64,000 nucleotides of DNA from positions 192,001 to 256,000 of the forward strand of contig CAVOVB010000010.1 in NCBI GenBank assembly GCA_963699755.1. The letters are read 5' to 3'. The notes under the pieces are model-generated. The model was not told the DNA's origin, searched no databases, and saw only the letters and a program-made list of their open reading frames with translations. The translations under genes were made by a program, and so were the position numbers. This document shows, piece after piece, positions 36,358-60,062 of this stretch. Position 1 is the first letter of the stretch, and the number at the start of each line of letters is the position of its first letter. The stretch is from an uncultured delta proteobacterium (GTDB lineage Bacteria; Myxococcota_A; Polyangia; Polyangiales; Houyiibacteriaceae).

Positions 36358-37446
36358 TCAGTCCACAAAGGGAGCTGGGGTCGGCGGATCGCTGCTGCGG
36401 TTGCGAGCGACCTCGGGTGAGAGCTCGTAGACGCGGGCGATGTCGTCCCAGAGCGTTGCACCGGGCTCGATGGCGTTCTTTCCCATGTACGGCGAAGCCG
36501 CGACGAGGGCGCGCCATACCAGGGGCCGAAATGGCGACAAGGCGAGCTTGCGAACACGAGACCGAGTCCGAAGCTCTTCCATGTATGCCCCTCGCGAGAT
36601 GCGCTGGAAGCCGAGCATCTGCTCGCTGGATTTCTCGTCCATCCAGCATTCGTAGAACCAGCCGTCCCTGATCGAAAGATCGGGGCTCGGTCGAAACGCC
36701 TTCTCCGGAGGCATGGTGAGGCCCACGGCGTCGAACACCTCGCCACGCAACTGACGCGCGGTCACTTTCCAAGACTGGTCCCCACCGATCAGAAACAGAT
36801 GGCCGTCGGGCTGCTGCGCTGCCGCCGAGGCGATCGCGCGCGCAGCATCGCGCACGTCGACCCCGTGCTCGGGCTGATCGAGCGACACCATGAAGATGAA
36901 GGGACGATAGCTGGGATGCTCGGGCATCAGATTGCGGAGGTCCATTACGGCGCCGAGCCGCAGCGAGCATTGGCGGAGGCCCGAATGGCGAAGCCAGCTC
37001 TCGACGGTGAGCTTCTGCAATCCGTAGTTGTCATCAGGCCGACAGGGGTCGGTCAACCGCCGAAACGGATCTCCCGGTGCACATGGGCCAAACGCTGCAT
37101 AGCTCGACACGAATACGAAGAACGCACCAGGCACGTGTCGCGTTGCCGCGTCGATCAGATGCTGGGCACCTCCCAGGTTCACCGATTCGGCCAGCTCGGG
37201 CTCTGCATAGGCAATAGGTGCCACGATCGCGGCGCAGTGGATGATGACGTCGGGTTTCACGAGCGCGACGAGTCGTGTCACCGCGCTCGGATTGGTCAGG
37301 TCACAGGCCTCGAACCGAACACCGGTCGGAATGCCCTCGGAATGGAGGTCGGTCGCCACCACCTCCATGCCCCGCCGTGCCAGCGCCCCGATCACGTAGC
37401 TGCCCACCTTGCCCGCAGCCCCCGTCAGTAGTGCAGTCCTGCTCAT
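36358..37446 (-). CDS. NAD-dependent epimerase/dehydratase (extended SDR)
   Basis: TGAAGKVG, HCAA and YGLQK (YxxxK); SD AGAGG before ATG 37446 (alternative GTG 37485). Confidence 0.85.
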   Translation of the reverse strand: MSRTALLTGAAGKVGSYVIGALARRGMEVVATDLHSEGIPTGVRFEACDLTNPSAVTRLVALVKPDVIIHCAAIVAPIAYAEPELAESVNLGGAQHLIDAATRHVPGAFFVFVSSYAAFGPCAPGDPFRRLTDPCRPDDNYGLQKLTVESWLRHSGLRQCSLRLGAVMDLRNLMPEHPSYRPFIFMVSLDQPEHGVDVRDAARAIASAAAQQPDGHLFLIGGDQSWKVTARQLRGEVFDAVGLTMPPEKAFRPSPDLSIRDGWFYECWMDEKSSEQMLGFQRISRGAYMEELRTRSRVRKLALSPFRPLVWRALVAASPYMGKNAIEPGATLWDDIARVYELSPEVARNRSSDPPTPAPFVD

Positions 37447-37481
37447 CGTGACCTCTTTCGCAGCCTCCTCGAAATCAAGCG

Positions 37482-39350
37482 TCACTCCGACGCAGGTTCT
37501 GAGCGCTTCTGTTCGATTTCGTCGTATAGGGCCTGTAGCTCGGCCTCTCCCAGGGTTTCCTTCTCCAACAGCAGTCGCGCCCCCTTCTCCAAGGTGTCGC
37601 GCTCCTTGCTGAGGACGGCGAGTGCCATGTCGAAGGCGCTCTGGACCATGGCCCGGACCGCGGTGTCGATCTCCCGAGCGGTGTCGTCGCTATACTCCCG
37701 CGTTCGAAAAGGAGAGACCCCTCCCCCCAAGAAAGCCGACGATTCGCTCTCATAGGAAACATGACCGAGCTCGGGCACCATCGCATAGCGAGTCACCATG
37801 CTGCGAGCAATGTCGGTCACCTTCGCTAGGTCGTCCGCTGCACCCGTGGACACATGATCGAAAACCAACTGCTCCGCAGCGCGTCCGCCCAGGAGGACGG
37901 CCATCTTTTCCTGCAGCTCTTCGCTCGTCATCAAGAAGCGATCTTCGGTAGGTCGCTGCATCGTGTATCCCAACGCGCCAACTCCTCGTGGAATGATCGA
38001 CACCTTGTGCACCGGATCGCAGTGCTCCGACACGAGGGCTACCAGCGCGTGACCCATTTCGTGGTATGCGACGACTTCGCGCTCACGTGGATTGAGGATA
38101 CGATTTTTCTTCTCGAGGCCAGCGACGATGCGCTCGATGGCAGCTGTGAAGTCCTCCAAGCTCACGCTGTCGGCGCCTCTTCGCGTGGCCACGATGGCGG
38201 CTTCGTTGACCAGATTGGCCAGGTCCGCACCGGTGAATCCAGGGGTGAGGGCCGCCACCTCTTCGAGATCAAGCTCGGCCCCGAGGGCTACGTCTTTCGC
38301 GTGCACCTTGAGAATCGCGGTTCTGCCGCGGCGGTCTGGCCGATCCACGAGCACCTGCCGATCGAACCGGCCCGCACGCAGCAGAGCGGGATCCAAAATC
38401 TCGGGGCGGTTCGTGGCGGACAGGAGCACGATGCCCGTCGACGAATCGAACCCATCGAGCTCGACCAGCAACTGATTGAGCGTCTGCTCCTTTTCGTCCA
38501 TGCCCCCCGTGAAAGGCTGGGCATTTCTCGCTCGGCCGAGGGCATCGAGCTCATCGATGAAGATGATGCAGGGCGCTTGCTGGCGAGCCTGGTCGAATAG
38601 ATCTCGAACGCGTGCCGCGCCTACCCCCACAAACATCTCGACGAACTCTGACCCGCTGATCGAAAAGAAGGGAACTCCTGCCTCCCCGGCGACGGCGCGA
38701 GCCAAGAGCGTTTTGCCAGTGCCCGGGGCGCCCACGAGCAAGATCCCTCTGGGCATACGAGCGCCGAGCCGGCCATAGGATTCCGGGTCCTTGAGAAAGG
38801 CGACGACTTCCTCGAGCTCTTGCTTGGCTTCGTCGACGCCGGCAACGTCAGAGAAGGTCACCCGCGTATCGGTCTCCATATAGACTTTCGCCCTGCTCTT
38901 GCCGACCGACATGAGCCCGGCGCCAGGGCCGCCGAGCCCTGCCATCCGGCGATTCAAGAAAAACCAAAAGCCCAAGAAGAGAAGCAAAGGCAACGACCAG
39001 GAGACGATTCCTCGCACCAGCGCGCTCTGCTCCTGCTTCGAATACTCGACCCCATGCGCTTGGAGGGTTTGGGCCAGATCGGGATCGACCCGATTGGTCA
39101 CAAAGCGCGTCTTTCCATCGATGGCTTCGGTCAGCTCGCCTCGCAGGGCATCGTCCGTGACGACGACCTCTTTGACCTTTCCTGCTACAAGCAGCGTCTC
39201 GAATTCACTGTAAGGGATCGACGCGACAGCTTCGTAGGTAGTCCAGACCTGCAGCAGAAACGACCCTCCCACGATGGCCACGAGAAGATAAAGAATGGCG
39301 AGACGAAGCCTAGGTCTCCTCCATTTGGGCTCCCGGTCTTGGTTTGGCAT
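37482..39350 (-). CDS. ftsH: ATP-dependent zinc metalloprotease FtsH
   Basis: Two TM segments, [33 protein letters not shown] and HEMGH; start MPNQ at 39350. Confidence 0.95.
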
Positions 39351-39398
39351 TGGGCTCGGAGGGACCTTAGCACTCGAAGTGCCTCGTGGGGGGGTCTC

Positions 39399-40628
39399 AT
39401 GTATGTTGGCGGAGCGATCAAGACCGTGACTACCAGCGAAACGATTCCGACACCGGGCGCCGTCGAAGAAGCAAGCAATCTCATGATGCGCTTTGCACAA
39501 CGCACGGGGCTCGTCTCCGACCTCCCCCCGCGTCGGTACCTATGGACGGACGCCTTTGCGGTTTGCAACCTACTCGCCTTGACCGAGGCGACCGGCGAAG
39601 AGCGGTACACGGCGCTCGCGCTTCGCTTGATCGACCAAGTGCATCACGTGCTTGGAACCCATCGCGCCGATGATCCACGAACCGGATGGATCAGCGGACT
39701 CGGTGAGCAGGAAGGTGCGTCGCACCCAACTCGGGGCGGGTTGCGAATCGGCAAGGCTCTCCCCGAACGAGCGATCGGAGAAGCTTTCGATGAGCGACTG
39801 GAGTGGGAACGGGACGGGCAGTACTTCCATTACCTGACAAAATGGATGCACGCCCTGGACCAGGCATCCCGCAGGACAGGGCGATCGCAGCTCAACGCCT
39901 GGGCGCGGGAGCTCGCCAAGGTGTCGCACGATGCTTTCACCTATGCCGATCGAAGCGGTCGACGCATGGTTTGGAAGATGAGCATCGATCTTTCGCGCCC
40001 GCTCGTCCCTTCGATGGGCCATCACGACCCGTTGGATGGCTTCATCACGGGCACGGAGTTGCAAATGACGCGGTCAATGCAACCGGGCACCCCAAGCGGC
40101 CCGGGGTTGGAGGACGAGGTGGCGGACTTCGCCGCCATGATCGCAGGCCAAGACTGGGCGACCGCCGACCCACTGGGCCTGGGCGGACTGCTGGCGGATG
40201 CTTCACGCGTTGCGCAGCTCATGCAGCTCGGGGCACTTGAGGGAACGGATCTGCTGCACGACTTGCTCGCTGCGGCGCTGCGAGGTCTTCCGGAGTATCT
40301 GCGGCAAAACGATCTGAGGTATCCCGCCTCTCGCCGCCTGGCTTTTCGGGAGCTCGGGCTCGCGATCGGGCTTTTCGCAGTCGAGCGGATCGAGAGGGAT
40401 GTCGAAACGACCCAGGGGAGCTCGTCTCGAGGCGCAGAAGTACGCGAGCAGATCGAGGCCCTCGCGCCCTACCTCACCCTCGGTCGGGAGATCCAGTCCT
40501 TTTGGCTCCATCCTCTGCATCGAGAAGCACGCACTTGGTCAGAGCACCGAGACATCAACGAAGTGATGCTCGCCACCAGCCTCCTTCCGGCGGGTTTTCT
40601 GTCGATGCGCCCATCCGGCTCACCATGA
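39399..40628 (+). CDS. Hypothetical protein (RRYLWTDAFAV motif), function unknown
   Basis: Protein-like composition with motif-like blocks GGLRIGK, DGQYFHYLTKW, WKMSIDLSRP, RLAFRELG and HRDINEVM; start uncertain (39399 or 39483). Confidence 0.75.
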   Translation: MYVGGAIKTVTTSETIPTPGAVEEASNLMMRFAQRTGLVSDLPPRRYLWTDAFAVCNLLALTEATGEERYTALALRLIDQVHHVLGTHRADDPRTGWISGLGEQEGASHPTRGGLRIGKALPERAIGEAFDERLEWERDGQYFHYLTKWMHALDQASRRTGRSQLNAWARELAKVSHDAFTYADRSGRRMVWKMSIDLSRPLVPSMGHHDPLDGFITGTELQMTRSMQPGTPSGPGLEDEVADFAAMIAGQDWATADPLGLGGLLADASRVAQLMQLGALEGTDLLHDLLAAALRGLPEYLRQNDLRYPASRRLAFRELGLAIGLFAVERIERDVETTQGSSSRGAEVREQIEALAPYLTLGREIQSFWLHPLHREARTWSEHRDINEVMLATSLLPAGFLSMRPSGSP

Positions 40629-41836
40629 CCGTCACCATCGATGACATCCTGAGCGCTCACGAGCTCATCCGGCCGAGCATCGTGCGGACTCCGTTCGAGC
40701 TCTCCGAAACGCTGTCGGCACTGATCGGCGTGCAACTCTACCTGAAGTTCGAAAACCAACAGTTCACGGCATCATTCAAGGAACGAGGAGCGCTCCATCG
40801 CTTGCTGGGCCTGAGCCCAGCGCAACGCGCACAGGGCGTGATTGCCATGTCCGCGGGCAATCATGCGCAGGCGCTCGCCTATCATGGAAGGCGGCTTGGG
40901 ATCCCGACGACCATCGTCATGCCGCTGACCACGCCCAATCCCAAGGTGGAGCAGACGCGCGCGCATGGGGCTGAAGTGATTTTGCACGGGAGCCAGTTCG
41001 ACGAAACGCGGGCGTTCACGCGAGAGCTGGCACGCCAACGGGGCCTGGCCTTGGTTCATCCCTATGACGACCCGGCGGTGATTGCGGGTCAGGGGACGCT
41101 TGCACTGGAGATGCTGGGGACAGGGACACGAATCGACACCCTCCTTGTGCCCATCGGAGGAGGCGGTCTGATCTCCGGGGTGGCCGTCGTGGCAAAGGCA
41201 CTGCACCCCAGCATCCAGATCGTGGGCGTGCAAAGCGAGCGCTACCCGGCCGCGCACCATGCTTTTCATGGTCTCGACCCGAGTGAGGTCCCCAACCACG
41301 ACACGGTTGCGGACGGCATCGCGGTCAAGTCACCCGGCGTCCTCACGATGGATCTCATTCGACGCCACGTCGACGACATCGTCCTCGTGTCTGAAGACGA
41401 CATCGAGCAGGCGATCTTCGTCCTTGCCGAGATCGAGAAGACCGTCGTCGAAGGTGCCGGCGCGGCAGGCGTCGCGGCAGCGATGAAGCACAAGAAGCGG
41501 TACCAGGGCCAGAACCTCGCAACCATCCTGTGCGGCGGCAACATCGACATGATGACGCTGTCCTCGGTCCTACAGCGTGGTATGGTGCGCAGCCACCGGC
41601 TGGTGAGGCTCGAGGTCGAGGTGCCGGACATCCCCGGCGCCCTTGGCCAAGTCACCCAGCTGATCGGCGAGCTGCAGAGCAACATCATCGAGATCGGCCA
41701 TCAGCGGGCCTTCGATGCCTCCTCCGCTCGTGCGGCGATCGTGAGCATGGTCCTTCAGCTTCGCGGCGAAGAAGAGGCGGAGCAGGTGTTGGAGGCCTTA
41801 TCGGCCAAGGGCTTCGATGCTCGTTTGGTCCACTGA
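40625..41836 (+). CDS. ilvA: Threonine ammonia-lyase with C-terminal ACT domain
   Basis: KFENQQFTASFKERGA, SAGNHAQ, PIGGGGL and GGNID; ATGA overlap with the upstream gene. Confidence 0.9.
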   Translation: MTVTIDDILSAHELIRPSIVRTPFELSETLSALIGVQLYLKFENQQFTASFKERGALHRLLGLSPAQRAQGVIAMSAGNHAQALAYHGRRLGIPTTIVMPLTTPNPKVEQTRAHGAEVILHGSQFDETRAFTRELARQRGLALVHPYDDPAVIAGQGTLALEMLGTGTRIDTLLVPIGGGGLISGVAVVAKALHPSIQIVGVQSERYPAAHHAFHGLDPSEVPNHDTVADGIAVKSPGVLTMDLIRRHVDDIVLVSEDDIEQAIFVLAEIEKTVVEGAGAAGVAAAMKHKKRYQGQNLATILCGGNIDMMTLSSVLQRGMVRSHRLVRLEVEVPDIPGALGQVTQLIGELQSNIIEIGHQRAFDASSARAAIVSMVLQLRGEEEAEQVLEALSAKGFDARLVH

Positions 41837-41871: not shown

Positions 41872-43113
41872 TCAAAACGAGCTTGCATGCACCGGCACGT
41901 TGCCGCTGAACCATGTGGCGCCCAAACGGGGATCCAGCAGGCGATCATGAAACGGCCCGACTTCCACTCGGCGGAGCATCAGCGACCGGAGTACACCCGC
42001 CCCTCGGACGTCTCCAACTAGGCGAAAGCCCACGATACGGCCGTCACTCAAGAAGACCTTGCGCAGCGCGCCATCGTTGCGCGACCGCAACTCTTCCTGC
42101 CCGGTCTGCGATCCCACGGCCATGACCTCCACGCCGAGGTGCTTGAGGCTGTTCATCGATTCGGCGCCCTCATAGGGAACCTCGAAGCCGAGTAGACCGT
42201 TGGCCACGACCCGCGCTTGAGCGACGGCGTTGGGAAAAATGGCATGGACAAAACGCTCTCCGGTCATCCGGTCCTTGGTTTCCGCCACGTCGCCTGCAGC
42301 GTAGATGTCTGCGACGTTCGTCCGCTGGAGATCGTCGACGAGAACTCCCCAATTCGTCTCGACGCCTGATCCCTTCAGCCAGTCGATGGCAGGCCTGACA
42401 CCCGTTGCAGCAACATAGGCATCGGCATCGAGCTCCTCGCCGGAGTCGAGCTTCACCCCCGTCACCTCGCGGTCACCGGTGAAGGCTTCGGCGCGGGTGT
42501 TCAGCCGTACCTCGACACCGCGCGCACGGACGTTCTCGAGCACGATCTCTGCGGTTTCGGGCTCGAGCATCCGCCACATAAGGCGACTCTCCCTCTCGAC
42601 CATGGTGACCGCGACGCCCAGATCTTGGAGAAGGAGCGCCAGCTCCACCCCGATGAAGCCAGCGCCCACGATGACTGCCCTGCGGATGCGGCCGGCACGG
42701 ACGCCCTCGACCAGCTGTTCAGCCGCGGAGAGCGATTTGAAGTTGTACACCCCAGGCAGGTCGTGTCCGACGACGGGTGCGTGCAATCCCCCACCCGTCG
42801 CGATGACCAGTCGGCCATAGTGCAGCACCGATCCGTCCGCCACGCTCAGCTCGTGCGCTTGGGGTATAAGCGATGTCACAGGGGTGTTGGCGCGGTAGTC
42901 CACGTTCAGCCGCTCACAGATATCACGCCCCTTCCAGAACAAGGTGTCCTCGCGCCCGGTGAGGAAGTGATCCGCCATGGCTGGCGGTGCGTAGGGGGGA
43001 AACGGCTCGGACGACAGCATGGTGATCGCGACGTCGCGGTCGTGCTCACGCAGCAACTCGGCCACGGTGATGCCGGCAGGGCCGGCGCCGACGATTACGA
43101 TGCCTGACGCCAT
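41872..43113 (-). CDS. FAD/NAD(P)-dependent oxidoreductase (CODH-associated FNOR)
   Basis: VGAGPAG, IATG, VGAGFIGVE and IYAAGD; overlaps the cooC stop. Confidence 0.9.
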   Translation of the reverse strand: MASGIVIVGAGPAGITVAELLREHDRDVAITMLSSEPFPPYAPPAMADHFLTGREDTLFWKGRDICERLNVDYRANTPVTSLIPQAHELSVADGSVLHYGRLVIATGGGLHAPVVGHDLPGVYNFKSLSAAEQLVEGVRAGRIRRAVIVGAGFIGVELALLLQDLGVAVTMVERESRLMWRMLEPETAEIVLENVRARGVEVRLNTRAEAFTGDREVTGVKLDSGEELDADAYVAATGVRPAIDWLKGSGVETNWGVLVDDLQRTNVADIYAAGDVAETKDRMTGERFVHAIFPNAVAQARVVANGLLGFEVPYEGAESMNSLKHLGVEVMAVGSQTGQEELRSRNDGALRKVFLSDGRIVGFRLVGDVRGAGVLRSLMLRRVEVGPFHDRLLDPRLGATWFSGNVPVHASSF

Positions 43114-43997
43114 TGCTCCAGCTCCACACGCAGCAGCGCATCGCGCAGCTCGCCGACCGCGCGCAGGAACGCCGAATCCGGACTGCTGAGCAATGGCCCC
43201 ACATCAGGCTCGCTCCGGAGGAGCTCCTCTTCGTAGGGGAGCATGTGTCGAGTGGCGAACGGGAAGCTTCCTTGGTCCTCCAGGACTTGGGCGAGACGCG
43301 CCGCATCGGCATCGCCGCGCACGCGGTTGACCACCAAATGAATCGCGGGAATCCCGAGCTCTCGTGCCAGGCGCGCGGCGTGCAAGGCGACCTGGACCCC
43401 GTTGAAGGTGGGATCGGTGACCACGACCGCATGCCGGAAGCCCCGAGCCAGCGCGCGGCCGAAGTGCTCGATGCCCGCTTGGGTGTCGAGGAGGATCGCT
43501 TCGCGACGGCGCAAGCTGACCGCATTGGCCACCGCCGCCAACAGCGAGTTCTCCGGACAGACGCAACCGGCGGCGGGTTTCACGGTATTGCCCATCACCA
43601 GCAGACGCACGTCGTCCGGCCCGACGACGCCGAAGCGTTCGACCACGTCATCGACGTTCGGATTGAGCCGAAAGAAAAGCCCCCAGCCCGAGCCAGGGCG
43701 CGTGCCGGTTTTCTCCTCGACGTAATCCGGATTCTCGCTGAGTGGAACCAGGCCGCGAGCGCGGTCAACGGGCAAGCCTAGGGCATAGGGAAGATTCATC
43801 TGCGGATCTGCATCGAGCGCCAACACTCGATAGGCGTCCCTCGCCAGAAGCCGCGCCAGCAAGGCCGTCAGGCTCGTTTTGCCTACCCCGCCTTTGCCGG
43901 TGATGACGACCCGAAACTCTTCGGGTCGGGCACGTCGCACGAGCCCCCTGTGGTCGTGGTGCCCGTGCTCATGCCCTTCGTGAAGGTCGTCACACAT
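43095..43997 (-). CDS. cooC: CO dehydrogenase nickel-insertion ATPase CooC with His-rich N-terminus
   Basis: GKGGVGKT, DADP, Ni-binding GCVCPEN and DTQAGIEHFGR; start MCDD at 43997. Confidence 0.92.
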   Translation of the reverse strand: MCDDLHEGHEHGHHDHRGLVRRARPEEFRVVITGKGGVGKTSLTALLARLLARDAYRVLALDADPQMNLPYALGLPVDRARGLVPLSENPDYVEEKTGTRPGSGWGLFFRLNPNVDDVVERFGVVGPDDVRLLVMGNTVKPAAGCVCPENSLLAAVANAVSLRRREAILLDTQAGIEHFGRALARGFRHAVVVTDPTFNGVQVALHAARLARELGIPAIHLVVNRVRGDADAARLAQVLEDQGSFPFATRHMLPYEEELLRSEPDVGPLLSSPDSAFLRAVGELRDALLRVELEQWRQAS

Positions 43998-46555: not shown

Positions 46556-46571
46556 TGCAAGAAACAGGCCC
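46556..46571 (-). promoter_or_regulatory. Putative sigma54 promoter of the coo operon
   Basis: Minus strand GGGCCTGTTTCTTGCA = GG-N10-GC with TTGCA. Confidence 0.55.
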
Positions 46572-46611: not shown

Positions 46612-46655
46612 ACGCATCCTGTGCGCTCCGCCGACCATGGACGCAGACATTTCGC
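46612..46655. promoter_or_regulatory. Putative enhancer-binding-protein sites
   Basis: ACGCA-tcctg-TGCGC (46612-46626) and the weaker ACGCA-gacat-TTCGC (46641-46655). Confidence 0.45.
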
Positions 46656-48433: not shown

Positions 48434-48449
48434 TGGTCTGGGTGTTGCA
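48434..48449 (+). promoter_or_regulatory. Putative sigma54 promoter
   Basis: TGGTCTGGGTGTTGCA = GG-N10-GC, 33 bp before ATG 48483. Confidence 0.65.
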
Positions 48450-50766: not shown

Positions 50767-50910
50767 CTAGTCGGACGGCGCAATCTCTTGGGTCTCTCTG
50801 AGCTCTTTCTCGAGCTCGGTAACCCGAGCTTCAAGCACCTCGAGCCGCTTCTTCAGCGCCACCACCTCGCTGTGCAGCGCTGGCCCTTCGTCTTGTTTCT
50901 GTTCTGACAT
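50767..50910 (-). CDS. 47-aa coiled-coil protein, absent from the ORF track
   Basis: MSEQKQDEGPALHSEVVALKKRLEVLEARVTELEKELRETQEIAPSD*; SD GAGGGAGG; heptad pattern; fills the gap between co-oriented genes. Confidence 0.7.
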   Translation of the reverse strand: MSEQKQDEGPALHSEVVALKKRLEVLEARVTELEKELRETQEIAPSD

Positions 50911-50936: not shown

Positions 50937-52919
50937 TCAGCCGTAGACATGCGGAATTGCGGCGCGTGCCGCCTCTGGCTTGAGTGCGTCAACGGCCTGA
51001 GTCTCATCGAACCAAACATAGGCGTCGAACTGCCAGGACAGCGCGGCCTGGAAGTAGTGGCTTTGAAGCTCGGTCTCCGGTCGATAAATGACGCCGATGG
51101 CCCGCTCCAAGCGCGGTGAACCCAGCTCCTCGCGAACCGCGTCGCGCGTCGGATAGCGGAGCGAGAGCAAGAACGCGGGCACCTCGCTGTCATGGCAAAG
51201 GCGCTCGTAGCTACTGGGATGTGAGGGCCGGACCCTCTTGATTTCCATAGGGCCGTCCCAATCCGTGGCGGCCGCGACCGTCCCCGTATGGGTTCCAAAG
51301 CCGATCGAGAATGCGGCGTCCCCAAATTTCTGGCGGCACAGCTGCCCGATGTTGTGCTCGCCGCGCGCGGCCCCCATCTCGGTCGCCCGGGCGTCGCCGA
51401 CGTGTGAATTGTGGGCCCAAACCACCACTTTCGAATCCGGGCCTCGAAACTCCAAGAGGCGCTCCAAGGTGTCGAACATGTGCTGGTCGCGAAGGTTCCA
51501 GGATGCTGGCCCCCCGTAGTACATGACGCGGTAGTACTGTTCCGCGGCGGACACCAAGTGGGCGTTGGAGGTGGCATCGAAGAACCGATCGCCTCCGGCC
51601 TTGGCATAGTCCAGCCGCCGCTCCAAGAGGTCGCGAAGGACGGCAACGACGGGGCGCTCGCATTCAGCGTATCCTCGACTGATCGCGGCGCGTCCGTACA
51701 AAGCCGGGTCGCGCTCCCAGGGAGAAAGGCAAGCATACCGCTCTCCTGCGATTTTCGCGGCCTTTGGATCGACGTCATTCAGGTAGTGAAGGACCGCATC
51801 GAGTGACTTGTACAAGCTGTAGAGATCGAGGCCACGAAACCCTACCCGTCGCTCGGGGTCGTCGATCAGCTCATTGTGCGACTTCAGCCAGGCAACCAGC
51901 TCGAGAACCTCTCGGTTGCGCCACATCCAAGTCGGGAAACGTGTGAATGGTGGATCTTCGCGAACGGGGAAGTCCAGCCCGCGAACATGGTGATCGATGC
52001 GGGCTGCGTCGGGCCAGTCCCCCTCGATGGCAACGATATTGAAGCCGCGCCGCATGACGAGCTCCGTCGTGAGGCGAGTCCTCATTCGATAGAATTCAGA
52101 CGTACCGTGGCTGGCCTCGCCGAGCAGCACGACGCGCGCATCGCCGATCTGCTCGAGCAATGGACCGAGCTCGACTTCGCCGATGTCGGCGATCGGTTGG
52201 CAGGCTTCACGAATCAAATGCGCGACCGGCGTCTCGGGACGCGGTGCGCGCTTCTGGCTTGGGGCCTCGGCACCCTCCGCGAAGCCTCCGGCGCCGATGA
52301 GTGGCACGAACCGGACGCCTCCCAAATCTTCGATGTCCGTCTGCCCAATGCTGTCTTTGGTGACGCGCAGCAGGCGTTGGTCTCGGAGATCGGGTCCGAC
52401 TGGAATCACGATTCGGCCGCCGGGCGCGAGTTGCTCGAGGAGGAACCGCGGGACTTCAGGCCCCCCCGCGGAGACCAGGATGGCATCAAAGGGCCCATGT
52501 TCGGGCCATCCCAGCGTCCCGTCTCCGCATAGAACGTACACGTTGCGATAGTCGAGCTCTCGCAGCCGACGCTCCGCTTGGTCAGCCAGCAGCCGATGAC
52601 GCTCGATCGTGTAGACCTCGTCGGCGATTTCCGCGAGGACCGCGGCCGCGTAGCCGGAACCGGTACCAATCTCCAAGACCCGATCACGGGGCCCGAGCTT
52701 CAGCGCCTCGACCATCGCCGCCACGATGAAAGGCTGCGATATCGTCTGCCCTTCTTCGATCGGCAGGGGAGTGTCATCGTAGGCAAACTCCGCTAGCCGT
52801 TCCGGAAGGAACGCCTCGCGCGGCACCGCCCGCATCGCGCCGAGCACCTTGGCGTCGTGAACGCCCCGCGCCTCCACGTGACGCTCCACCATGCGACGAC
52901 GCTGTTCGCTGGTATCCAT
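50937..52919 (-). CDS. pcm: Protein-L-isoaspartate O-methyltransferase fused to an erythromycin-esterase-family domain
   Basis: QTISQP, VLEIGTGSGY, VRFVPL; then LLGEASHGTSEFY, EGDWPD, WNLRD, VWAHNSH and ERAIGVIY. Confidence 0.9.
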   Translation of the reverse strand: MDTSEQRRRMVERHVEARGVHDAKVLGAMRAVPREAFLPERLAEFAYDDTPLPIEEGQTISQPFIVAAMVEALKLGPRDRVLEIGTGSGYAAAVLAEIADEVYTIERHRLLADQAERRLRELDYRNVYVLCGDGTLGWPEHGPFDAILVSAGGPEVPRFLLEQLAPGGRIVIPVGPDLRDQRLLRVTKDSIGQTDIEDLGGVRFVPLIGAGGFAEGAEAPSQKRAPRPETPVAHLIREACQPIADIGEVELGPLLEQIGDARVVLLGEASHGTSEFYRMRTRLTTELVMRRGFNIVAIEGDWPDAARIDHHVRGLDFPVREDPPFTRFPTWMWRNREVLELVAWLKSHNELIDDPERRVGFRGLDLYSLYKSLDAVLHYLNDVDPKAAKIAGERYACLSPWERDPALYGRAAISRGYAECERPVVAVLRDLLERRLDYAKAGGDRFFDATSNAHLVSAAEQYYRVMYYGGPASWNLRDQHMFDTLERLLEFRGPDSKVVVWAHNSHVGDARATEMGAARGEHNIGQLCRQKFGDAAFSIGFGTHTGTVAAATDWDGPMEIKRVRPSHPSSYERLCHDSEVPAFLLSLRYPTRDAVREELGSPRLERAIGVIYRPETELQSHYFQAALSWQFDAYVWFDETQAVDALKPEAARAAIPHVYG

Positions 52920-53019: not shown

Positions 53020-53469
53020 CTAGGATTTGATCTCGACCGTCCTTGCCTTGGATTCCTTGGGCGTCGTGCGTGGGATTCGCACCTTGAGTAGGCCGTCCTT
53101 GTATTCGGCCGCGACCTTGTCTTCGTTGGCGTCATCAGGCAGCGTGAAGCTCCGCATGAAGCTCCCATACGAGCTTTCGACACGATGATGCTTCTTGCCC
53201 TTTTCTTCCTTTTCCTCGCGCCGTTCCCCGCGGAGCGTCAGAACGCGGTCTTCGATGTTCACATCGAAGTCGTCTTTTTTCACTCCCGGCAACTCCGCCT
53301 CGATCCGGTACTCCTCGGAAGTCTCCGATACATTGCACGTCGGCGCCCAGTCGGCGATCGACAATGCCTCGCGCTCTCCGAACGGCCAAGTCGCCAACAT
53401 CTCGCGAACCGCTTCTTGCAAGTTTCCAAATCCGGCTAGCGGGTCACGCCCTCTTTTGATGAGTGTCAT
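53020..53469 (-). CDS. Small heat shock protein (Hsp20/alpha-crystallin)
   Basis: AELPGV, LTLRGER, YGSFMRSFTLP, AEYKDGLL and C-terminal VEI; SD GGAGG. Confidence 0.95.
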   Translation of the reverse strand: MTLIKRGRDPLAGFGNLQEAVREMLATWPFGEREALSIADWAPTCNVSETSEEYRIEAELPGVKKDDFDVNIEDRVLTLRGERREEKEEKGKKHHRVESSYGSFMRSFTLPDDANEDKVAAEYKDGLLKVRIPRTTPKESKARTVEIKS

Positions 53470-53514: not shown

Positions 53515-53530
53515 AGCAACAATCGGGCCA
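53515..53530 (-). promoter_or_regulatory. Sigma54 promoter of hsp20
   Basis: Minus strand TGGCCCGATTGTTGCT, one mismatch to the TGGCACG-N4-TTGCW consensus. Confidence 0.8.
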
Positions 53531-53638: not shown

Positions 53639-53653
53639 GCGCATATTCTGCGT
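53639..53653. promoter_or_regulatory. Putative enhancer box upstream of hsp20
   Basis: GCGCA-tattc-TGCGT, about 110 bp upstream of the -24 element. Confidence 0.5.
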
Positions 53654-53660
53654 CGAGCAT

Positions 53661-55382
53661 TCAAGGTCGCGCCAATAGCTTCTTCAGTGCGCGCCAAGGC
53701 CTGGTGTTGAGCACGTCCTCGGGCTCGAGCCATCCCCGGCGACCCTGATCCACGCCAAAGCGCATGTATTCCAAGTTGCTCTTGCTGTGGGCGTCCGTCG
53801 AAATGGCGAGCTTGAGGCCCATGTCCTTGGCCATGCGGCAACGGACGTCATCGAGATCGAGGCGATCGGGCTGCGCATTGAGCTCGAGGTAGCAGCCTCG
53901 TTCGAGGGCTGCCTCCATGACGCGTTCCATATCGAGCTCGTAGCCGGGTCGTTGGTTGATGAGACGCCCGGTCGGATGGGCCAAGATATTGAAGTACGGG
54001 TTGTCCATGGCACGCATGATCCGTTCTGATTGGGCGTCGCGGCTCAATCCGAAGCCGCTGTGGACGGCGCAGACGGTGAGGTCCAATTGCTTTAGGACGC
54101 TATCGCTCAAGTCGAGTGTTCCATCTGCCAGAATGTCCACTTCGACGCCCTTGAGGACGCGGATCCCCACGAGCCGCGAGTTCAGACGATCGATTGCATC
54201 GAGCTGCCGCCGAAGACGCTTCTCGTCCATTCCATTGGCGATGGTGACGCGCTTCGAATGGTCGGTGATCGCCAGGTAGCCATAGCCCAGCTTCTTGGCC
54301 GCTTCGGCCATCTCTCGTATCGAATCGTGGCCGTCCGTGGCATCGCTGTGCGCGTGTAGATCCCCACGGATGTCGCCGACGCAAACGAGGCGCGGCAGCC
54401 GGTTCTCCTTGGCGGCTTCGATCTCTCCCCGGTTCTCTCTCAGCTCGGGTTCGATGTAGCGAAGGCCCACGGCCTTGAAAAGCTCGTTTTCGGCCTTGCC
54501 CGCAACCCTGCGTTCGCCTCTGAAAACGCCGTATTCGTTGATCTTCAACTTCTTCTTCACCGCAATCGCGCGGACCGCGATGTTGTGCGCCTTGGAGCCC
54601 GTGAAGTAGTACAAGGCCGCCCCGTAAGAAGCTTGCGCCACGACCCGCAGGTCGACTTGAAGCCCTGATCGCAATACGACGGTAGCCCGCGTCGTACCGC
54701 GTGAGACGACTGCATCCACTTCGTCGTACTCGACAAAGCCCTTGATGATCGCTGAGCCCTTCTCGCAGGTAACCAGAATGTCCAGGTCTCCGACGGTTTC
54801 CTTCCGGCGACGATAGCTCCCGGCGACGATGACGTCTTTCACGCCTGGAATGGCTTTGAGGTGGTCGACGTACAGGCTTGCGATCTCCTCGACGTCGGCG
54901 AGCTGGTGTCTTCGTTCTTCTGGCGCATGCATGGAGAGCGCCTCGAGAATTCGTCGCTCCGTCTTCGCTCCGAATCCCGTGAGCTCGCGAATCCGGTGCT
55001 TTGTAGCGGCGCGTTCCAAGTCGGCGAGGTCGCGGATTCCCAACTCCTCATGCAAGACCTTGACCCGCTTCGGACCCAATCCGGGCAGCCGGGTCAGATC
55101 GATGAGCCCCACTGGCACCTCTTTCTCCACCTCTTCGAGCGCGGGGAAATGCCCCGTGTCGATGAACTCGGAGATCTTCCCGGCCAGATCCTTTCCAATT
55201 CCGGGTAGCCTCGAGAGGTCCTCTTCCTCTGCGAGCATGTCGCCGACGCTTCGCGGCAGGCTGTCCAGCGTTTGGGCCGCGTTTCGATAGGCACGCACCC
55301 GGAACGGATTGGCCCCTTGGATTTCGAGCAGGGCGGCCATCCGATCGAACAGGTCGGCGATTTCGGCATTACGAACAGGCAT
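53661..55382 (-). CDS. polX: DNA polymerase X with C-terminal PHP domain
   Basis: NPFRVRAY, HhH PGIG/PGLG, GSYRR...GDLD, YFTGSKAHN; PHP motifs DLHAHS, TDHS, AHPTGR and TDAH. Confidence 0.95.
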   Translation of the reverse strand: MPVRNAEIADLFDRMAALLEIQGANPFRVRAYRNAAQTLDSLPRSVGDMLAEEEDLSRLPGIGKDLAGKISEFIDTGHFPALEEVEKEVPVGLIDLTRLPGLGPKRVKVLHEELGIRDLADLERAATKHRIRELTGFGAKTERRILEALSMHAPEERRHQLADVEEIASLYVDHLKAIPGVKDVIVAGSYRRRKETVGDLDILVTCEKGSAIIKGFVEYDEVDAVVSRGTTRATVVLRSGLQVDLRVVAQASYGAALYYFTGSKAHNIAVRAIAVKKKLKINEYGVFRGERRVAGKAENELFKAVGLRYIEPELRENRGEIEAAKENRLPRLVCVGDIRGDLHAHSDATDGHDSIREMAEAAKKLGYGYLAITDHSKRVTIANGMDEKRLRRQLDAIDRLNSRLVGIRVLKGVEVDILADGTLDLSDSVLKQLDLTVCAVHSGFGLSRDAQSERIMRAMDNPYFNILAHPTGRLINQRPGYELDMERVMEAALERGCYLELNAQPDRLDLDDVRCRMAKDMGLKLAISTDAHSKSNLEYMRFGVDQGRRGWLEPEDVLNTRPWRALKKLLARP

Positions 55383-55545
55383 GAACCCGAAGGCAACGCT
55401 TCATGCGTCACCGAGTACTTCTCCCTCTTCGCCGCTCGTAGGGCAAGCCCGGCGAAGGACCAACGCTTGAAACGACCCCAGGCGCAGAATCTGGGCGAGT
55501 TGCCGAAGGAGCTGGGGGTCAGACCTTCGGTGAAGACCTGGTTCG

Positions 55546-58272
55546 CTAGACCGATGCGCCGTCCGGCCGACTTGGGCGTCTACCGAGCGAGACGACCTTC
55601 TTGCGCAGATAGTCCGCCACGAAGATCAGCGGCGCTCCGAGCCAGACCATGGCGTACATCTCCGGGGAGACCGGGCCGGTGCCGAGCACGCGACGCAGCG
55701 GCGGAAAGTAGAGGGTGGCCCACGAGAAACCGATTTCGATGGCAAATCCGATAAGAATCAATCGATTGTCGAGGAGACCGCGATCGAGTCCTGAACGGGT
55801 GGCAGATCGGCGACCGATGAAATTGCCGATCTGCATCAGCATGATCGTGGCAAGTGCGACGCCCGTCGCCGACTGATAGAGCGGATCACTCGCCGTGAGC
55901 CGCTCTCCGTAGTGCCAACCTCCCGCGTGCAGGACCCAGAAGAACAGAGCCAGGGAGTATGTGGCCTCGATGAGACCTAAGAAGAAGTAGCTGTGGGCGA
56001 CGAGCCGAAAGTTGAGCAGGGGTTCGTCGCGGCCGCGTGGTGACTGCATCATCGTTTCGTCGTCGGTGGGCTCTTGGCCGAGAGCTATCGATGGAATGAT
56101 GTCCGTCCCAAGGTCGATCGCCAGGATCTGAATGATCGTCAGCGCCAGTGGCACTGGAAAGAGGATGTAGATCAAGTACGGTAAGATCTCTGGCCCATTG
56201 CTGACCAGAACGTAGTTCGTGAATTTCTGGATGTTGTTGAAGATCGTGCGCCCTTCGGCGACGCCCGCGACGATAGATGCAAAATTGTCGTCGAGGAGGA
56301 TGATCTGAGCGGCCTCTCGGGCGACATCCGTTCCGCTGACGCCCATCGCGACACCCACGTCCGCTGCCTTCAGTGCGGGCGCGTCATTGACGCCATCACC
56401 TGTCATCGCGACCACGAGCCCAAGCCGCTTCAGTGCGGTGACGATCTTCATCTTCTGTTCGGGGGTGGTCCGCGCAAATACGCACACGCCTCCTTCGAGA
56501 AGCTCGCAGAGCTCGGCTTGTCGTAAGCGCTCGAGGTCCTCCCCCGATAGGACGAACGGCTCTGAGCCGCCGGCCGACGGGTCGGACGCTGGTAGGATGC
56601 GCGCCTTGCGTGCAATGGCGGAGGCGGTCTGAGGGTGATCTCCGGTGATGAGCAGAACGCGAATCCCAGCTTGGCCGCACTTGCTGACCGCATCTGGGAC
56701 TTCGGGCCGCAACGGATCCTCGAGACAGAGGAATCCCTCTAGCCTCAACCCATGCTCTAGTTCCTCTTGCTCGATCTCTTCCCGCTCGAGCTCCGGCGCA
56801 CCCGCGGGGACGACGCGCGTCGCGATGGCAATGATGCGTTGACCCTCGCCCGCCAAGCGATCAACCAACGCGTCGATCTCCGCTAGCGACCCCGTAGTGG
56901 CTTCGTGCCCGGGCCCGTTGGTCTCCGAGATCTCGCCAATCCGCGGACGGAGCGCCTCCCATGCGCCTTTGACAGCGAAGACCGCGTCGCGCCGACCTCG
57001 CCGAAGCCCCGCGGCCCGCCGCTTGCGCAAATCAAAGGCGAAATGTCGCGTCGTCTGTTGAAGGACCTCGTCCACGTCGCCGACTTCGACTGCGTACAGC
57101 TCCGCCAGCGCGACGTCGAGCGGATCGCCTACCCATTTGCCCGCTTGTTGGTGAGGCTCGCTGGCGATCAGGCCCGAGCGCAGAATCTCTCCGCGCAGTG
57201 GCCGCGATTGGGTGATCTCGCTGCCCCTCGCGTCGACGATCCGAGTAATCGAGAGCTGGTTGAGCGTGAGGGTGCCAGTCTTGTCGGTACAGATCGCATG
57301 GACCGCGCCGAGCCCTTCGACGGCATTCAAGCTCTTGACCAAGACGTTTTGGCGGGCCATCCGCAGGCTTCCCATCGCCAACGACAGCGTGAAGGTGGGC
57401 AGCAATCCCTCGGGAACGTTGGCCACGATGATGCCGAGCATGAACACCAAGTTCACCCAGAGCGGGCGTCCCGCGAACACGCCGTACGCGAAGAAGACGC
57501 CACCCATGGTGACGGCGATCGCCGTCAGCACTCGCACCATGTGCGTGGTCTGTCGCTCGAGCGGCGAGGCCGGCCGGCGAATGTCGCGAGAGAGGGCCGC
57601 CACTTGTCCAAACTGCGTTCGCTCGCCGGTGGCGAAGACGACCGCAAGCCCGGAACCCTTGAGCACGGAGCAGCCGGCGAACGCGATATTGCTGCTATCG
57701 ATCAAGCGCCCGGGCACCGCGGCCTCCGTGAGCGGTACAGCCCCGGATTCTCCTGTGAGCGGTGCATTGTTGACCAGCAACTCGGTGCACTGTACGAGCC
57801 GCGCGTCGGCGGGAATGCGATCCCCCTCCTCGATGAGAAGCACGTCGCCGGGAACCACGTTCTCCGCCAGCATCTCGATCTCGTGGCCCTCACGGCGCAC
57901 CGCCACGTGCGGCGGCAAGAACTTCGCCAGGGCCTGCATGGCACGATCGACTCGGTACTCTTGGAAGAACGCAAAGGACGCGTTCAGCAGCGATACGGAG
58001 AGCAGCGCCCAGCCGAGAATGTCCATCCGTTCGCCTGGCTGCATGGCGTCGGCCACAAAACAGAGCGCCGCCGCCACATCGAGCAGCAAGCTGAAGAAGT
58101 TGGTGAGCTGTCGAAACAGACTGCGAGCCAAGCGAAAGCGTGCAGGGGGACTCAAGGCGTTCTTGCCCAACTCACGCAAGCGCTCGGCGACCTCCGTCGA
58201 GGTCAGGCCGTCAGGACGGCTGTGCAGTAGCTCGAACACGCGTTCGGGCGGGGCGTTTTGGATCTGGCTCAC
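55546..58272 (-). CDS. P-type cation-transporting ATPase, type IIC (Na/K-ATPase)-like
   Basis: LTGES, IVANVPEGL, DKTGTLT, TGDH, GDGVNDAPAL, SNGPE and IDLGTD; GTGA overlap with the usp gene. Confidence 0.92.
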   Translation of the reverse strand: MSQIQNAPPERVFELLHSRPDGLTSTEVAERLRELGKNALSPPARFRLARSLFRQLTNFFSLLLDVAAALCFVADAMQPGERMDILGWALLSVSLLNASFAFFQEYRVDRAMQALAKFLPPHVAVRREGHEIEMLAENVVPGDVLLIEEGDRIPADARLVQCTELLVNNAPLTGESGAVPLTEAAVPGRLIDSSNIAFAGCSVLKGSGLAVVFATGERTQFGQVAALSRDIRRPASPLERQTTHMVRVLTAIAVTMGGVFFAYGVFAGRPLWVNLVFMLGIIVANVPEGLLPTFTLSLAMGSLRMARQNVLVKSLNAVEGLGAVHAICTDKTGTLTLNQLSITRIVDARGSEITQSRPLRGEILRSGLIASEPHQQAGKWVGDPLDVALAELYAVEVGDVDEVLQQTTRHFAFDLRKRRAAGLRRGRRDAVFAVKGAWEALRPRIGEISETNGPGHEATTGSLAEIDALVDRLAGEGQRIIAIATRVVPAGAPELEREEIEQEELEHGLRLEGFLCLEDPLRPEVPDAVSKCGQAGIRVLLITGDHPQTASAIARKARILPASDPSAGGSEPFVLSGEDLERLRQAELCELLEGGVCVFARTTPEQKMKIVTALKRLGLVVAMTGDGVNDAPALKAADVGVAMGVSGTDVAREAAQIILLDDNFASIVAGVAEGRTIFNNIQKFTNYVLVSNGPEILPYLIYILFPVPLALTIIQILAIDLGTDIIPSIALGQEPTDDETMMQSPRGRDEPLLNFRLVAHSYFFLGLIEATYSLALFFWVLHAGGWHYGERLTASDPLYQSATGVALATIMLMQIGNFIGRRSATRSGLDRGLLDNRLILIGFAIEIGFSWATLYFPPLRRVLGTGPVSPEMYAMVWLGAPLIFVADYLRKKVVSLGRRPSRPDGASV

Positions 58273-59108
58273 GACGGGGTTCCGTAGATGGCGACGTCAC
58301 AGGGCGCGTTTCGCAGGACCTGCTCGATCGGGCTTCCGTACACCGAACGCTGGCGAAGCGACGCCGTAGAAGCGCCCATGTAGATGAGCTGGGACTTGGT
58401 CTTGCCGGCATGGATGACAATCTCTTTGGGAATGTCATCGGAGAGGAGGACGGTGGCGTCGAGCCTGGTGGATGGCAAACCAAGCTCGGAGCCCAAGGTT
58501 TGCTCTATCTCGGCGACGTAGTGCTGTCGCATCTGAAGCAAGCGCGCTGCCTCCGCGTGACTGATGCGCTCAAACCGCTGCCGGCTCAGCTGATGAACCA
58601 GCAGGACTTCGACCGCGCTCGCGTCGGGCGCGAGCAGACGAAGATAGGGCAATCCAACTCGGATACCTTCGGGGCGACCGCTCACCGGAACCAAGAACTT
58701 GTGAGGACCTCCCAAGAGCCCCGGCTGCACAACCCGGACCGAGAGAACCTGGCAGCGACCCTCGCGCAACAACTTTTCCGATACCGTGTCGGCGAGAAAG
58801 CCGCGTCCCTTTTGGCGCACGCGGGTTCCGCAGACCAGATAGTGGGCAGGGTCCTGTGGAACGAGCGCCAGAAGTGTGGCCGCCACGGTCTTGCGCTCGG
58901 GCTTGACGGTGAGCTCGAGCGGCAGAGCAAGCTCCTCGGAATCGGCTTCGATGCGGGCGAAGCGCTGCTCCACGGCCGCTTTCGAAAGCTGACCGTCTTC
59001 CACGTACAAGACGTGGAGCCCGGGCTCGGGGAGCCGGCTCGCCATCTTCATGGCATAGCGTGCGACCCAGTCACCGTGAATCGACCCGTCGTAGGCGAAA
59101 TGCAGCAT
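58269..59108 (-). CDS. Tandem universal stress protein
   Basis: FAYDGS...LVCG...VSEKLL; second domain LVPVSG...IYMGAS...GSPIEQVLRNAPCDV. Confidence 0.85.
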   Translation of the reverse strand: MLHFAYDGSIHGDWVARYAMKMASRLPEPGLHVLYVEDGQLSKAAVEQRFARIEADSEELALPLELTVKPERKTVAATLLALVPQDPAHYLVCGTRVRQKGRGFLADTVSEKLLREGRCQVLSVRVVQPGLLGGPHKFLVPVSGRPEGIRVGLPYLRLLAPDASAVEVLLVHQLSRQRFERISHAEAARLLQMRQHYVAEIEQTLGSELGLPSTRLDATVLLSDDIPKEIVIHAGKTKSQLIYMGASTASLRQRSVYGSPIEQVLRNAPCDVAIYGTPS

Positions 59109-59348
59109 GCCTGTCTCCACCGCGTTGATGATCCCGTGAGCGTGAGAAGTCACCTACCACGGAGAGTCTTCTAGGAGAAATCGCCAACGTCGTACGCTAT
59201 CTAGACATCTCTCGCGAGACGCTCCGCGATCGGCTTTCAAGCGCTCCCTACCCAACGCGCATCGAACGTTTCGTATCAATGGCCTTTCCGTTCGAGTCTA
59301 TCGACCATAACCTCCGCGTTAGACCCGTACACCCCCGGAGACAATCCA

Positions 59349-60062
59349 ATGGTGCAACACTGACACGAGAGCGAGAGGTGCCAAGTCTGCCACCGAAGCA
59401 AAGCGACGAATCGAACGCTCCCCGCGATCATGGCGCGAGGAGGCGTCAAGGACTTGATTCGCAGAGACCATTCCGATTGGAACGATAGCGGATTTATCTG
59501 TTTCACTTGCCTCGACCAATATCGCGCCGAGTATGTGCGGCAGCTCATGGAGAGGGACCTCGGCGAGCTGGACGAGCTGGAACAGGCGGTCGTCAAGAGC
59601 CTGGGAGACAATGCCTTGCTCTCTGAGAACCTCAACGAGGAATACGAGCGTTCCATCACCAGAGGGGATCGACTCGCGGACAAGGTGGCCGAGTTCGGTG
59701 GGAGCTGGAGGTTCATCATCTGGTTCGGCATCTTGCTAGGCACTTGGATTGCGCTCAATTCACTGATGTTTCTCTGGCAACCCTTCGATCCCTATCCATT
59801 CATCCTGCTGAACCTCTTGCTCTCCTCGCTCGCGGCGATTCAGGCGCCGATCATCATGATGAGCCAAAACCGGCAAGAAGATCGCGACCGGATACGGGCG
59901 GAGAACGACTACCAGGTGAACCTGAAAGCGGAGATGGAAATCCGCATGATCAAGGAAAGGCTCGACCACCTCCTCCACGCGGAAATGCGCCGATTCATGG
60001 AGATTCAGCAGATCCAAATGGACATGCTCCAGGAGCTCCACGGGGACCTGCGCCGCCGCTGA
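59349..60062 (+). CDS. DUF1003 membrane protein; N-terminal CxxC...CxxC region lies after an in-frame TGA at 59361 (uninterrupted ORF starts at 59430)
   Basis: GDRLADKVAEFGGSW, FDPYPFILLNL, AAIQAPIIMMSQNRQ and DYQVNLKAE; upstream in-frame MVQH*HESERCQVC with GGAG SD. Confidence 0.85.

Follow-up and report, generated by a model that had tools for sequence, protein, structure and literature searches.

A candidate NmpR-type low-oxygen regulon with a predicted Ni-CODH operon in the Polyangia lineage SG8-38

Among described systems, the closest to the one discussed here is NmpRSTU of Myxococcus xanthus, in which NmpR is an oxygen-limitation activator that binds GCGCA-N5-TGCGC, and most NmpR-bound promoters had two such boxes 14-15 bp apart (PMC11841059). 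O2 is reported to activate NmpU, which switches NmpS off, and NmpS alone phosphorylates NmpR (PMC6211767). The sensor globin has a relative in AfGcHK from Anaeromyxobacter sp. Fw109-5 (PDB 5OHE), a NmpU homologue that is activated by O2 or CO and phosphorylates a two-receiver protein (PMC8697598). Clusters of the type cooF-cooS-(cooC)-FNOR encode nickel carbon monoxide dehydrogenases (Ni-CODH) of group E-2, as defined in PMC6344411, where the cooF/CooS/FNOR unit for CO-to-NAD(P)H conversion is called putative. More distant are the DosR regulon of Mycobacterium tuberculosis and the lxa locus of Burkholderia cenocepacia, whose overlap in gene families has been remarked before (PMC3721108). We analysed a stretch of 64,000 nucleotides, called the window throughout (contig CAVOVB010000010.1, positions 192,001 to 256,000), from an uncultured member of the lineage SG8-38 (Polyangia). 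A preliminary description of this DNA had read 24 kb of it (36358-60062) as a single DosR-like, sigma54-wired module containing a Ni-CODH.

Our best reading, which we regard as reasonably probable on sequence grounds, is a streamlined NmpR low-oxygen regulon in which a fused globin kinase would signal directly to an NmpR-like activator and which has captured a Ni-CODH. Three promoter regions of the window, those of the coo operon, of the TPR and HAD genes and of hsp20 with a protein-isoaspartate methyltransferase (PCM) gene, are likely satellites of this regulon, run from another contig. The host genus has 55 sampled species, and the public runs that match the source best are sediment metagenomes; no RNA data set was listed among the holders. 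Where labels are needed, G000 is the source genome with contigs C1, C2 and so on, G0xx are congeners and L0xx are fetched loci.

The likeness to NmpRSTU extends over the GCGCA-N5-TGCGC boxes, their 14-15 bp tandem spacing and the sigma54 promoters, over a protoglobin sensor with a proximal histidine (His96) and an NtrC-like output, and over targets that include cbb3/P-type ATPase genes, hemerythrin, universal stress proteins (USP), CBS proteins and the system's own operons (PMC11841059, PMC6211767). Where NmpRSTU comprises four proteins, the system here has two. Its globin sits in one protein with an NmpS-type kinase, and neither a full-length match to NmpS or NmpT nor an S/T-type receiver motif was found among the called genes of the source genome. 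A further difference lies in the added predicted targets, namely the Ni-CODH operon, Hsp20, the PCM-esterase fusion, an HPF-archease-RtcB operon, and glycogen and wax-ester enzymes. The main text of PMC11841059 mentions neither Hsp20, carbon monoxide nor Polyangi-; the gene list in its Fig. 7 may hold more targets.

Promoter signals of the window

Reading of the sequence upstream of hsp20, polX, the TPR and HAD genes and cooF revealed an intergenic palindrome, GCGCA-N5-TGCGC, which equals the published NmpR consensus including the preferred 14-15 bp gap. At the coo promoter (minus strand) box S2 (46612-46626, one mismatch) lies 14 bp from box S1 (46641-46655, two mismatches, one inside the GCA core), and a sigma54 -24/-12-like site of cooF follows at 46556-46571 (5/7 extra positions). 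Between the divergent TPR and HAD genes we see three boxes (48279-48293, 48309-48323 and 48346-48360, with 1, 1 and 0 mismatches), the first two 15 bp apart; the TPR gene has a consensus sigma54 site (48221-48236, -) and the HAD gene a sigma54-like one (48434-48449, +). The promoters of cooF, TPR and HAD each combine tandem boxes with a sigma54 site. The hsp20 promoter has a good sigma54 site (53515-53530, -) and one box (53639-53653, -; one mismatch) with no partner at 14-15 bp.

The presence of a sigma54 motif is weak evidence by itself, because the genome average predicts about 6 occurrences of a loose pattern in 24 kb. A scan with the strict consensus TGGCAY-N5-TTGC gave one match in the window (48236-), insufficient as sole evidence. 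Conservation is more informative: the hsp20 site counts as real because it is kept in 11/11 orthologues, and the cooF site because it is conserved in close cooF loci. The preliminary description had supposed sigma54 signals shared by the interval. This was borne out for hsp20, cooF and TPR/HAD, but at the likely starts of usp-ATPase, DUF1003, CDF, polX and SDR no sigma54 site scores at least 4/7; ftsH has a sigma54-like site without a box, and polX a box without a clear sigma54 site. In relatives, the palindrome lies 65-173 bp upstream of the sigma54 site at hsp20, HPF and HAD. Box and sigma54 site persist when hsp20 is missing, with PCM or a 47-aa gene then first, HPF promoters keep both in 7/7 loci, and the HAD promoter of congener G022 (L028) retains the box pair and the sigma54 site. 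A single-box rule is passed by 8/11 hsp20 orthologues compared with 29/4556 genes of this genome, and by 5 with the order reversed.

We then scanned all called genes of the source genome (n=4898) for tandem boxes with a sigma54 site. A gap of 14-15 bp gave 19 genes, a gap of 12-13 bp gave 6, and nine other gap pairs gave 0-1 each; three of the 19 lie in a contaminant part of C1 (see below). The gene caller had mis-set the starts of cooF and HAD, so both are absent from the scan lists and were scored by hand. The matches include ccoS/ccoNO, hemerythrin-USP, and glycogen and PEP-synthase operons and overlap the M. xanthus NmpR regulon. Boxes occur at ccoS/ccoNO, hemerythrin-USP, CBS, a WS/DGAT-activator operon and a USP-kinase operon, which would include autoregulation. 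Many predicted lipoprotein genes with similar signal peptides carry the same box and sigma54 layout at C1:86840, 350048 and 439091, C2:115501, 366460 and 845503, C3:3275 and 33019, C5:68227, C6:4443 and C10:17359, among others. An operon of HPF-CSD, archease and RtcB (C4:37234-39688), which adjoins polX or hsp20 in several congeners, has a perfect box and a sigma54 site. On C3 (280509-292507), divergent boxed promoters set a USP gene opposite genes for PEP synthase, acetyl-CoA synthetase, a pyruvate-dehydrogenase-like protein, a P-type ATPase and a CBS protein; this ATPase is a better ctpF analogue than that of the window. A perfect box precedes an NO-reductase-like pair (C1:403985-406044), and a box with one mismatch belongs to a NiFe hydrogenase (C1:1013036-1015869); neither has a clear sigma54 site.

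The regulator locus and its fused globin kinase

The preliminary description saw no regulator of these genes in the window, which we can confirm, and it expected a cognate enhancer-binding system with heme input elsewhere. Such a locus exists on C7. Box matches cluster at C7:240-273 kb, a region that holds cbb3 oxidase, USP, CBS, hemerythrin, glycogen enzymes, WS/DGAT, an NtrC-like REC-AAA-HTH activator with a GAFTGA motif (C7:269904-271331) and, convergent to it, a protoglobin kinase (C7:271328-272509). The best PDB match of the kinase is AfGcHK, and its proximal His aligns. It occurs in 11/11 and 5/5 congeners tested and is convergent with the activator in 15/16 congener loci, the sixteenth of which stops at a contig end. 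The HTH recognition helix and the receiver helix of the activator match those of activators from U-T-S-R (L176, L178) and U-S-R (L164) loci; these are the layouts of related genomes, as opposed to the kinase and activator alone in SG8-38. In the activator tree, from which two partial rows were left out, the grouping with U-T-S-R activators as a whole is weak (77/60), and that with a U-S-R locus of the same family is strong (100/99). The C7 activator is likely the NmpR-like regulator of the boxed promoters. Together with the boxes and sigma54 site at coo, this lends support to the earlier proposal of a sigma54-wired programme that includes the Ni-CODH and probably answers to low oxygen.

About 330 kb of C1 (about 1589000-1925000) duplicates C7 at 79-91% identity. 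We discarded the idea that the genome natively has the regulator locus twice: the tested part of the duplicate is 99.3% identical to DNA of G023, so the C1 copy is likely contamination. A different protein of C1 (648354-649748, -) is a paralogue, 55% identical to the NmpR-like protein and nested in its clade, with a similar recognition helix. Its receiver is degenerate, with changes in the acidic pocket, the phospho-Asp (to Glu) and the Lys, and it has no adjoining kinase. Orthologues with at least 50% identity are found in 24/54 congeners, including G002.

The C7 sensor is likely an NmpU-type globin fused to an NmpS-type kinase. Its kinase domain has an H-box of the NmpS type and groups as sister of NmpS from L164, a genome of the same family (98/97), and constraining it with NmpU kinases was rejected (p-AU 0.0025) in a careful tree of 20 rows chosen from 53, the null group of this test having been set after a preliminary tree. 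For the globin domain, too, the sister comes from L164, namely its NmpU globin (90/83). An in-frame deletion within a U-S gene pair would explain both the fusion and the fact that NmpS and NmpT were not found. The linker between globin and kinase has 29 aa in each of the 13 distinct versions parsed from SG8-38, compared with 28 aa in 23/23 parsed NmpU-type kinases (25 examined); that of AfGcHK, judged by His183 and the alignment (PMC8697598), is likewise one residue shorter than here, the remaining likeness to AfGcHK being drawn for the globin domain. Since NmpU and NmpS act in series with an inversion, O2 would now have to inhibit the fused kinase to give a low-oxygen output, and its deoxy form would be the active one. 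A linker register shift of +1 inverted signalling of YF1 (PMC11164954). The additional linker residue is thus a lead to the cause of a polarity flip, not a proof. In other families, too, a globin kinase whose H-box is of the S type adjoins an activator (L062, L064, L067, L079, L162, L163, L179), with linkers shorter or longer than in NmpU (23 and 37 residues where parsed), and some S-type globin kinases elsewhere in the phylum have extra domains. Because they occur, the U-S shortcut is not unique to this lineage.

The coo operon

The cassette is encoded on the minus strand by cooF (45886-46503), a 4Fe-4S electron-transfer protein, cooS (43990-45882), a cooC-type nickel-insertion ATPase with a His-rich N-terminus (43095-43997) and FNOR, an FAD/NAD(P) oxidoreductase (41872-43113). 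CooS scores above the cut-off of TIGR01702, its best PDB match is the Desulfovibrio vulgaris CODH 6B6V, and the ligands of the B- and C-clusters, the catalytic His and Lys and a CxxC-(X5)-C D-cluster are all present. The CxxC motif, found in 79/80 CooS kin, has been tied to O2 tolerance of CODH (PMC9782325). By sequence, CooS is an intact D. vulgaris-type (group E-2) Ni-CODH. The cooC gene, named from its CbiA/ParA family and presumed role, keeps its operon position in 60/80 loci, and FNOR is present in 72/80. In layout, CxxC motif and active-site motifs the operon resembles other cooF-cooS-(cooC)-FNOR clusters of group E-2 (PMC6344411, PMC9782325), as in the lack of acetyl-CoA synthase (ACS), which a profile search did not find in the genome. 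It differs from them in having no adjoining CooA-type regulator and in its NmpR boxes and sigma54 site, which are absent from distant copies; the host here is an aerobically respiring myxobacterium. Two Crp-family HTH proteins are encoded elsewhere in the genome. Wood-Ljungdahl genes, NarG, NapA and form I CoxL gave no match over cut-off in the genome, which has cbb3, a full-length A-type oxidase subunit (below the TIGR cut-off), the NO-reductase-like pair and the NiFe hydrogenase. Because ACS was not found, CooS is likely to serve CO oxidation, with CooF and FNOR passing the electrons on to NAD(P)H.

In a 25-row tree that used 24 of the 80 loci, the SG8-38 CooS pair shares a clade (SH-aLRT 99) with Woeseiaceae and further Gammaproteobacteria; this placement suggests that CooS was probably acquired horizontally. 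Besides the source genome, the cassette is complete in 1/54 congeners (G002). In G064 cooC-FNOR is cut by an N gap, G030 retains a 40-codon FNOR remnant behind the threonine ammonia-lyase gene, and neither the remaining 51 congeners nor 33 genomes from the family's other genera yielded the cassette. In G019, G022, G023 and G061 nothing of it separates the ammonia-lyase gene from CDF, which are direct neighbours there. A recent one-off insertion as the only reading was dropped in view of the G030 remnant, the partial cassette of G064 and CDF beside cooF in close metagenome loci. An assembly artefact was also dismissed: a contig of metagenome run X1, which may be the source sample, spans cooS-cooF-promoter-CDF and one of run X7 spans the ammonia-lyase/FNOR end, both without differences.

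Among the 80 genome loci related to CooS, box and sigma54 site occur together in L080 only, with two perfect boxes 14 bp apart; L080 is the same locus as G002:C53. A second set comprised 80 metagenome cooF loci, 76 of them with at least 200 bp upstream. The tandem rule holds at 12/13 loci with at least 77% identity and at 0/63 below. Judged from identity, GC and neighbours, the close loci appear to belong to SG8-38. S1 is perfect or has one mismatch in most close relatives, and the boxes are kept while spacers diverge, giving three promoter types (that of the window, L232/L234 and L236).

Neighbouring genes, rival readings and significance

Pfam and NCBIfam profiles, by which the window genes were named, upheld the earlier names, among them the HAD fusion, the hemerythrin-like protein, FtsH, PolX and cooFSC-FNOR. 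Not listed before were a 381-aa protein (39483-40628, +) and threonine ammonia-lyase (40625-41836, +), which form the left flank of the coo cassette and were not assigned to the regulon, the CDF transporter (46731-47732, +) on the right flank, divergent from cooF and without a sigma54 site of its own, the 115-aa TPR-like gene (47828-48175, -), whose longer relative on C3 has 460 aa, and a conserved 47-aa gene (50767-50910, -) that is probably in the hsp20-PCM operon. The 381-aa protein matches no Pfam or NCBIfam family and has hypothetical proteins as Atlas neighbours; its Atlas family extends to Thermodesulfobacteriota and fungi, with an epimerase-like barrel as a weak lead. The HAD gene (48483-50198, +) encodes a HAD phosphatase-DUF87 ATPase-DUF5752 fusion. 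Next to it, the hemerythrin-like gene (50241-50684, -) is an uncertain regulon member, as it has no promoter signal of its own and was not found at any relative's locus that was fetched. The adjacency of hsp20 (53020-53469, -) to an erythromycin-esterase gene holds, whereas PCM is no separate gene: both domains are fused in one protein (50937-52919, -; PCMT aa 8-209, esterase aa 288-640). PolX-PHP (53661-55382, -), with a one-mismatch box at 55482-55496, is also uncertain as a regulon member. The usp gene (58269-59153, -) is indeed coupled to the P-type ATPase gene (55546-58272, -; best NCBIfam match type IIC, below cut-off), its stop overlapping the ATPase start as GTGA, and the pair lacks box and sigma54 site. 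At the edges lie SDR (36358-37446, -), a second FtsH (37482-39350, -), whose sigma54-like site (39369-39384) is kept in 3/6 relatives and which stays outside the regulon assignment, and DUF1003 (59430-60062, +). A MutH-family gene (35416-36087, +) directly 3' of dnaE is kept among congeners; a glycosyltransferase family 8 and alpha-glucosidase pair (61215-63739, +) is shared with many congeners at varying sites.

It is very improbable that all 24 kb form a single persistence module of the DosR kind, regulated and inherited together, and synteny largely refutes this version. DNA searches of 54 congeners and 42 fetched loci show the pieces in many different orders. SDR is a constant neighbour of mutH/dnaE, usp-ATPase lies apart from the other window genes in 6/6 fetched loci, and the promoter signal is present in three regions only. 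Within 5 kb of the 80 CooS-kin loci, hsp20, PCM and a P-type ATPase were met once each. In favour of one module, hsp20 and PCM/esterase are neighbours in 8 of the 11 congeners (of 54) with hsp20 orthologues, whereas groEL comes between hsp20 and PCM in two and the 47-aa gene directly follows hsp20 in one; six metagenome cooF loci besides the one identical to the window have CDF and some also HAD/TPR or PCM at their flanks; and gene families overlap those of DosR (PMC4090907) and lxa (PMC3721108). HPF-archease-RtcB, a Lon-like protease, CBS and groEL are found near these genes in relatives. A compositional island was likewise rejected, as GC is flat over the window and coo-gene GC3 is 0.73-0.81 against 0.71-0.81 in the flanks; no tRNA was seen near the region. 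The 24 kb is thus a mosaic in a much-shuffled accessory region, in which the remaining interval genes are mere neighbours of regulon satellites and usp-ATPase is a passenger; regulon membership of usp-ATPase, SDR, ftsH and polX is not shown. Of the conservation that had been predicted, the promoter motifs are found in relatives (cooF in 12/13 close loci, the hsp20 box in 8/11), but not the clustering of the whole interval.

In the mechanism that we propose, O2 on the heme would keep the fused kinase off, opposite to AfGcHK and possibly by way of the one-residue-longer coiled-coil linker, and the deoxy kinase would phosphorylate NmpR directly. Phosphorylated NmpR on paired boxes would open the sigma54 promoters of cbb3 oxidase, hemerythrin, USPs, CBS, glycogen and wax-ester enzymes, HPF-archease-RtcB, Hsp20/PCM and the coo operon. 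CooS would then oxidise CO, and electrons passing from CooF through FNOR to NAD(P)H may supply high-affinity respiration or NO reduction with reducing power for maintenance. A more far-reaching version, to which we give somewhat less than an even chance, is that SG8-38 condensed a four-protein double-negative relay into one fused kinase with its polarity flipped by the linker, and wired an acquired O2-tolerant Ni-CODH through NmpR boxes more than once. As part of this joint reading, lack of O2 and not CO would trigger CO oxidation, and heme-bound CO might damp it.

Several observations weigh against the low-oxygen NmpR regulon. The regulator is on a contig other than that of the window, NmpR orthology is argued from synteny, motif and regulon overlap instead of M. 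xanthus sequences, and the genome bin looks chimeric over part of C1. Eleven of the 19 tandem-box matches precede lipoprotein, lipase or uncharacterised genes with no oxygen link. Three of the 11 hsp20 orthologues have no box within 300 bp, and the hsp20 promoter has a single box, whereas M. xanthus NmpR needed two in vitro; S1 of the window breaks the GCA core that all bound M. xanthus sites keep (PMC11841059). The 13 close cooF loci are not independent: one is 100% identical to the window cooF, one is the G002 promoter and two form an identical pair. Moreover, the only homologue that has been measured, AfGcHK, is O2-activated (PMC8697598), inverted DmF1/DrF1 variants are not confined to +1 (PMC11164954), and the paralogue, whose HTH is similar and whose receiver is dead, is present in both genomes that have the full coo cassette.

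Some of these points feed two rival explanations. If the fused kinase were O2-activated, as AfGcHK is with O2 or CO bound and not in the deoxy state (PMC8697598), the regulon would be an oxygen-exposure or re-oxygenation programme and CODH-FNOR electrons would serve O2 detoxification and repair. A direct link of U-type globin to S-type kinase without inversion would flip the output in this way, a CODH-FNOR-CooF cluster of Clostridium ljungdahlii rose on O2 exposure (cited in PMC6344411), and the D-cluster motif of CooS fits an O2-tolerant enzyme (PMC9782325). We nevertheless find this unlikely, as the regulon retains genes that M. xanthus induces under hypoxia, for cbb3, hemerythrin, USP and CBS proteins (PMC11841059), the genome encodes an A-type oxidase as well, and the linker is one residue longer than in all parsed NmpU-type kinases. 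We think it quite unlikely that the paralogue reads the coo and lipoprotein boxes, uncoupling CODH expression from the oxygen sensor. Its similarity, recognition helix, place in the NmpR-like clade and occurrence in congeners including G002 agree with such a role, as does the box geometry that coo shares with lipoprotein promoters; yet the same geometry is found at cbb3, hemerythrin-USP and PEP-synthase promoters, and the paralogue was not found in G031 and G067 (99-100% complete), which keep the PCM box and sigma54 site and the kinase-NmpR pair. An O2-sensitive enzyme would also better fit a low-oxygen signal. The low-oxygen regulon under an NmpR-like activator thus stays our preferred reading.

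DosR-like regulation, by contrast, did not survive the comparison, since the candidate regulator is NmpR-like, a described system (PMC11841059), and the likeness to DosR is one of gene families: alpha-crystallin, USPs and a cation ATPase, with a Zn protease in lxa and triacylglycerol synthase in DosR (PMC4090907, PMC3721108). DosR uses two-component control and Dos boxes instead of sigma54 and an NmpR box; a separate search for DosR homologues was not made. The lxa genes form one contiguous locus with an FNR-like TGA-N6-TCA motif (PMC3721108), whereas targets here are spread over several contigs under another motif, and CODH is absent from the DosR and lxa gene tables seen (PMC4090907, PMC3721108). 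Because regulator and motif differ, the system may work like these programmes and is not a member of them. Regarding the proposed parallel to hspX/Rv2030c and USP/ctpF, the esterase domain is shared but the N-terminus here is PCM, and the usp-ATPase pair is present without a regulon signal. The N-terminus of Rv2030c we take to be a phosphoribosyltransferase, and Rv2630/Rv2631 and Rv2626c are presumably archease/RtcB and a CBS protein.

What appears new is the probable U-S fusion and the Ni-CODH among the predicted NmpR targets, the NmpR system itself being already described. We found no paper linking NmpR or a globin kinase to Ni-CODH or describing the U-S fusion, in a search that left subscription papers mostly aside; the main text of bioRxiv 10.64898/2026.07.10.737566 mentions neither CODH, NmpR nor cbb3, though its supplements may list CODH genes. 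For the cooF-cooS-cooC-FNOR cassette, which is widespread and has no settled role in aerobic sediment bacteria, the locus offers a concrete candidate regulator and signal; it also suggests a way for an aerobe to use an O2-sensitive enzyme. The NmpR regulon, described in soil Myxococcus, would extend to a lineage from sediment and take in repair genes of the dormancy type, and the likeness to DosR would be answered as convergence, the same gene menu under a different switch. The fused kinase may finally allow a test, in a natural system, of the idea that the register of a coiled coil determines signalling polarity during evolution, an effect so far shown in engineered kinases (PMC11164954).

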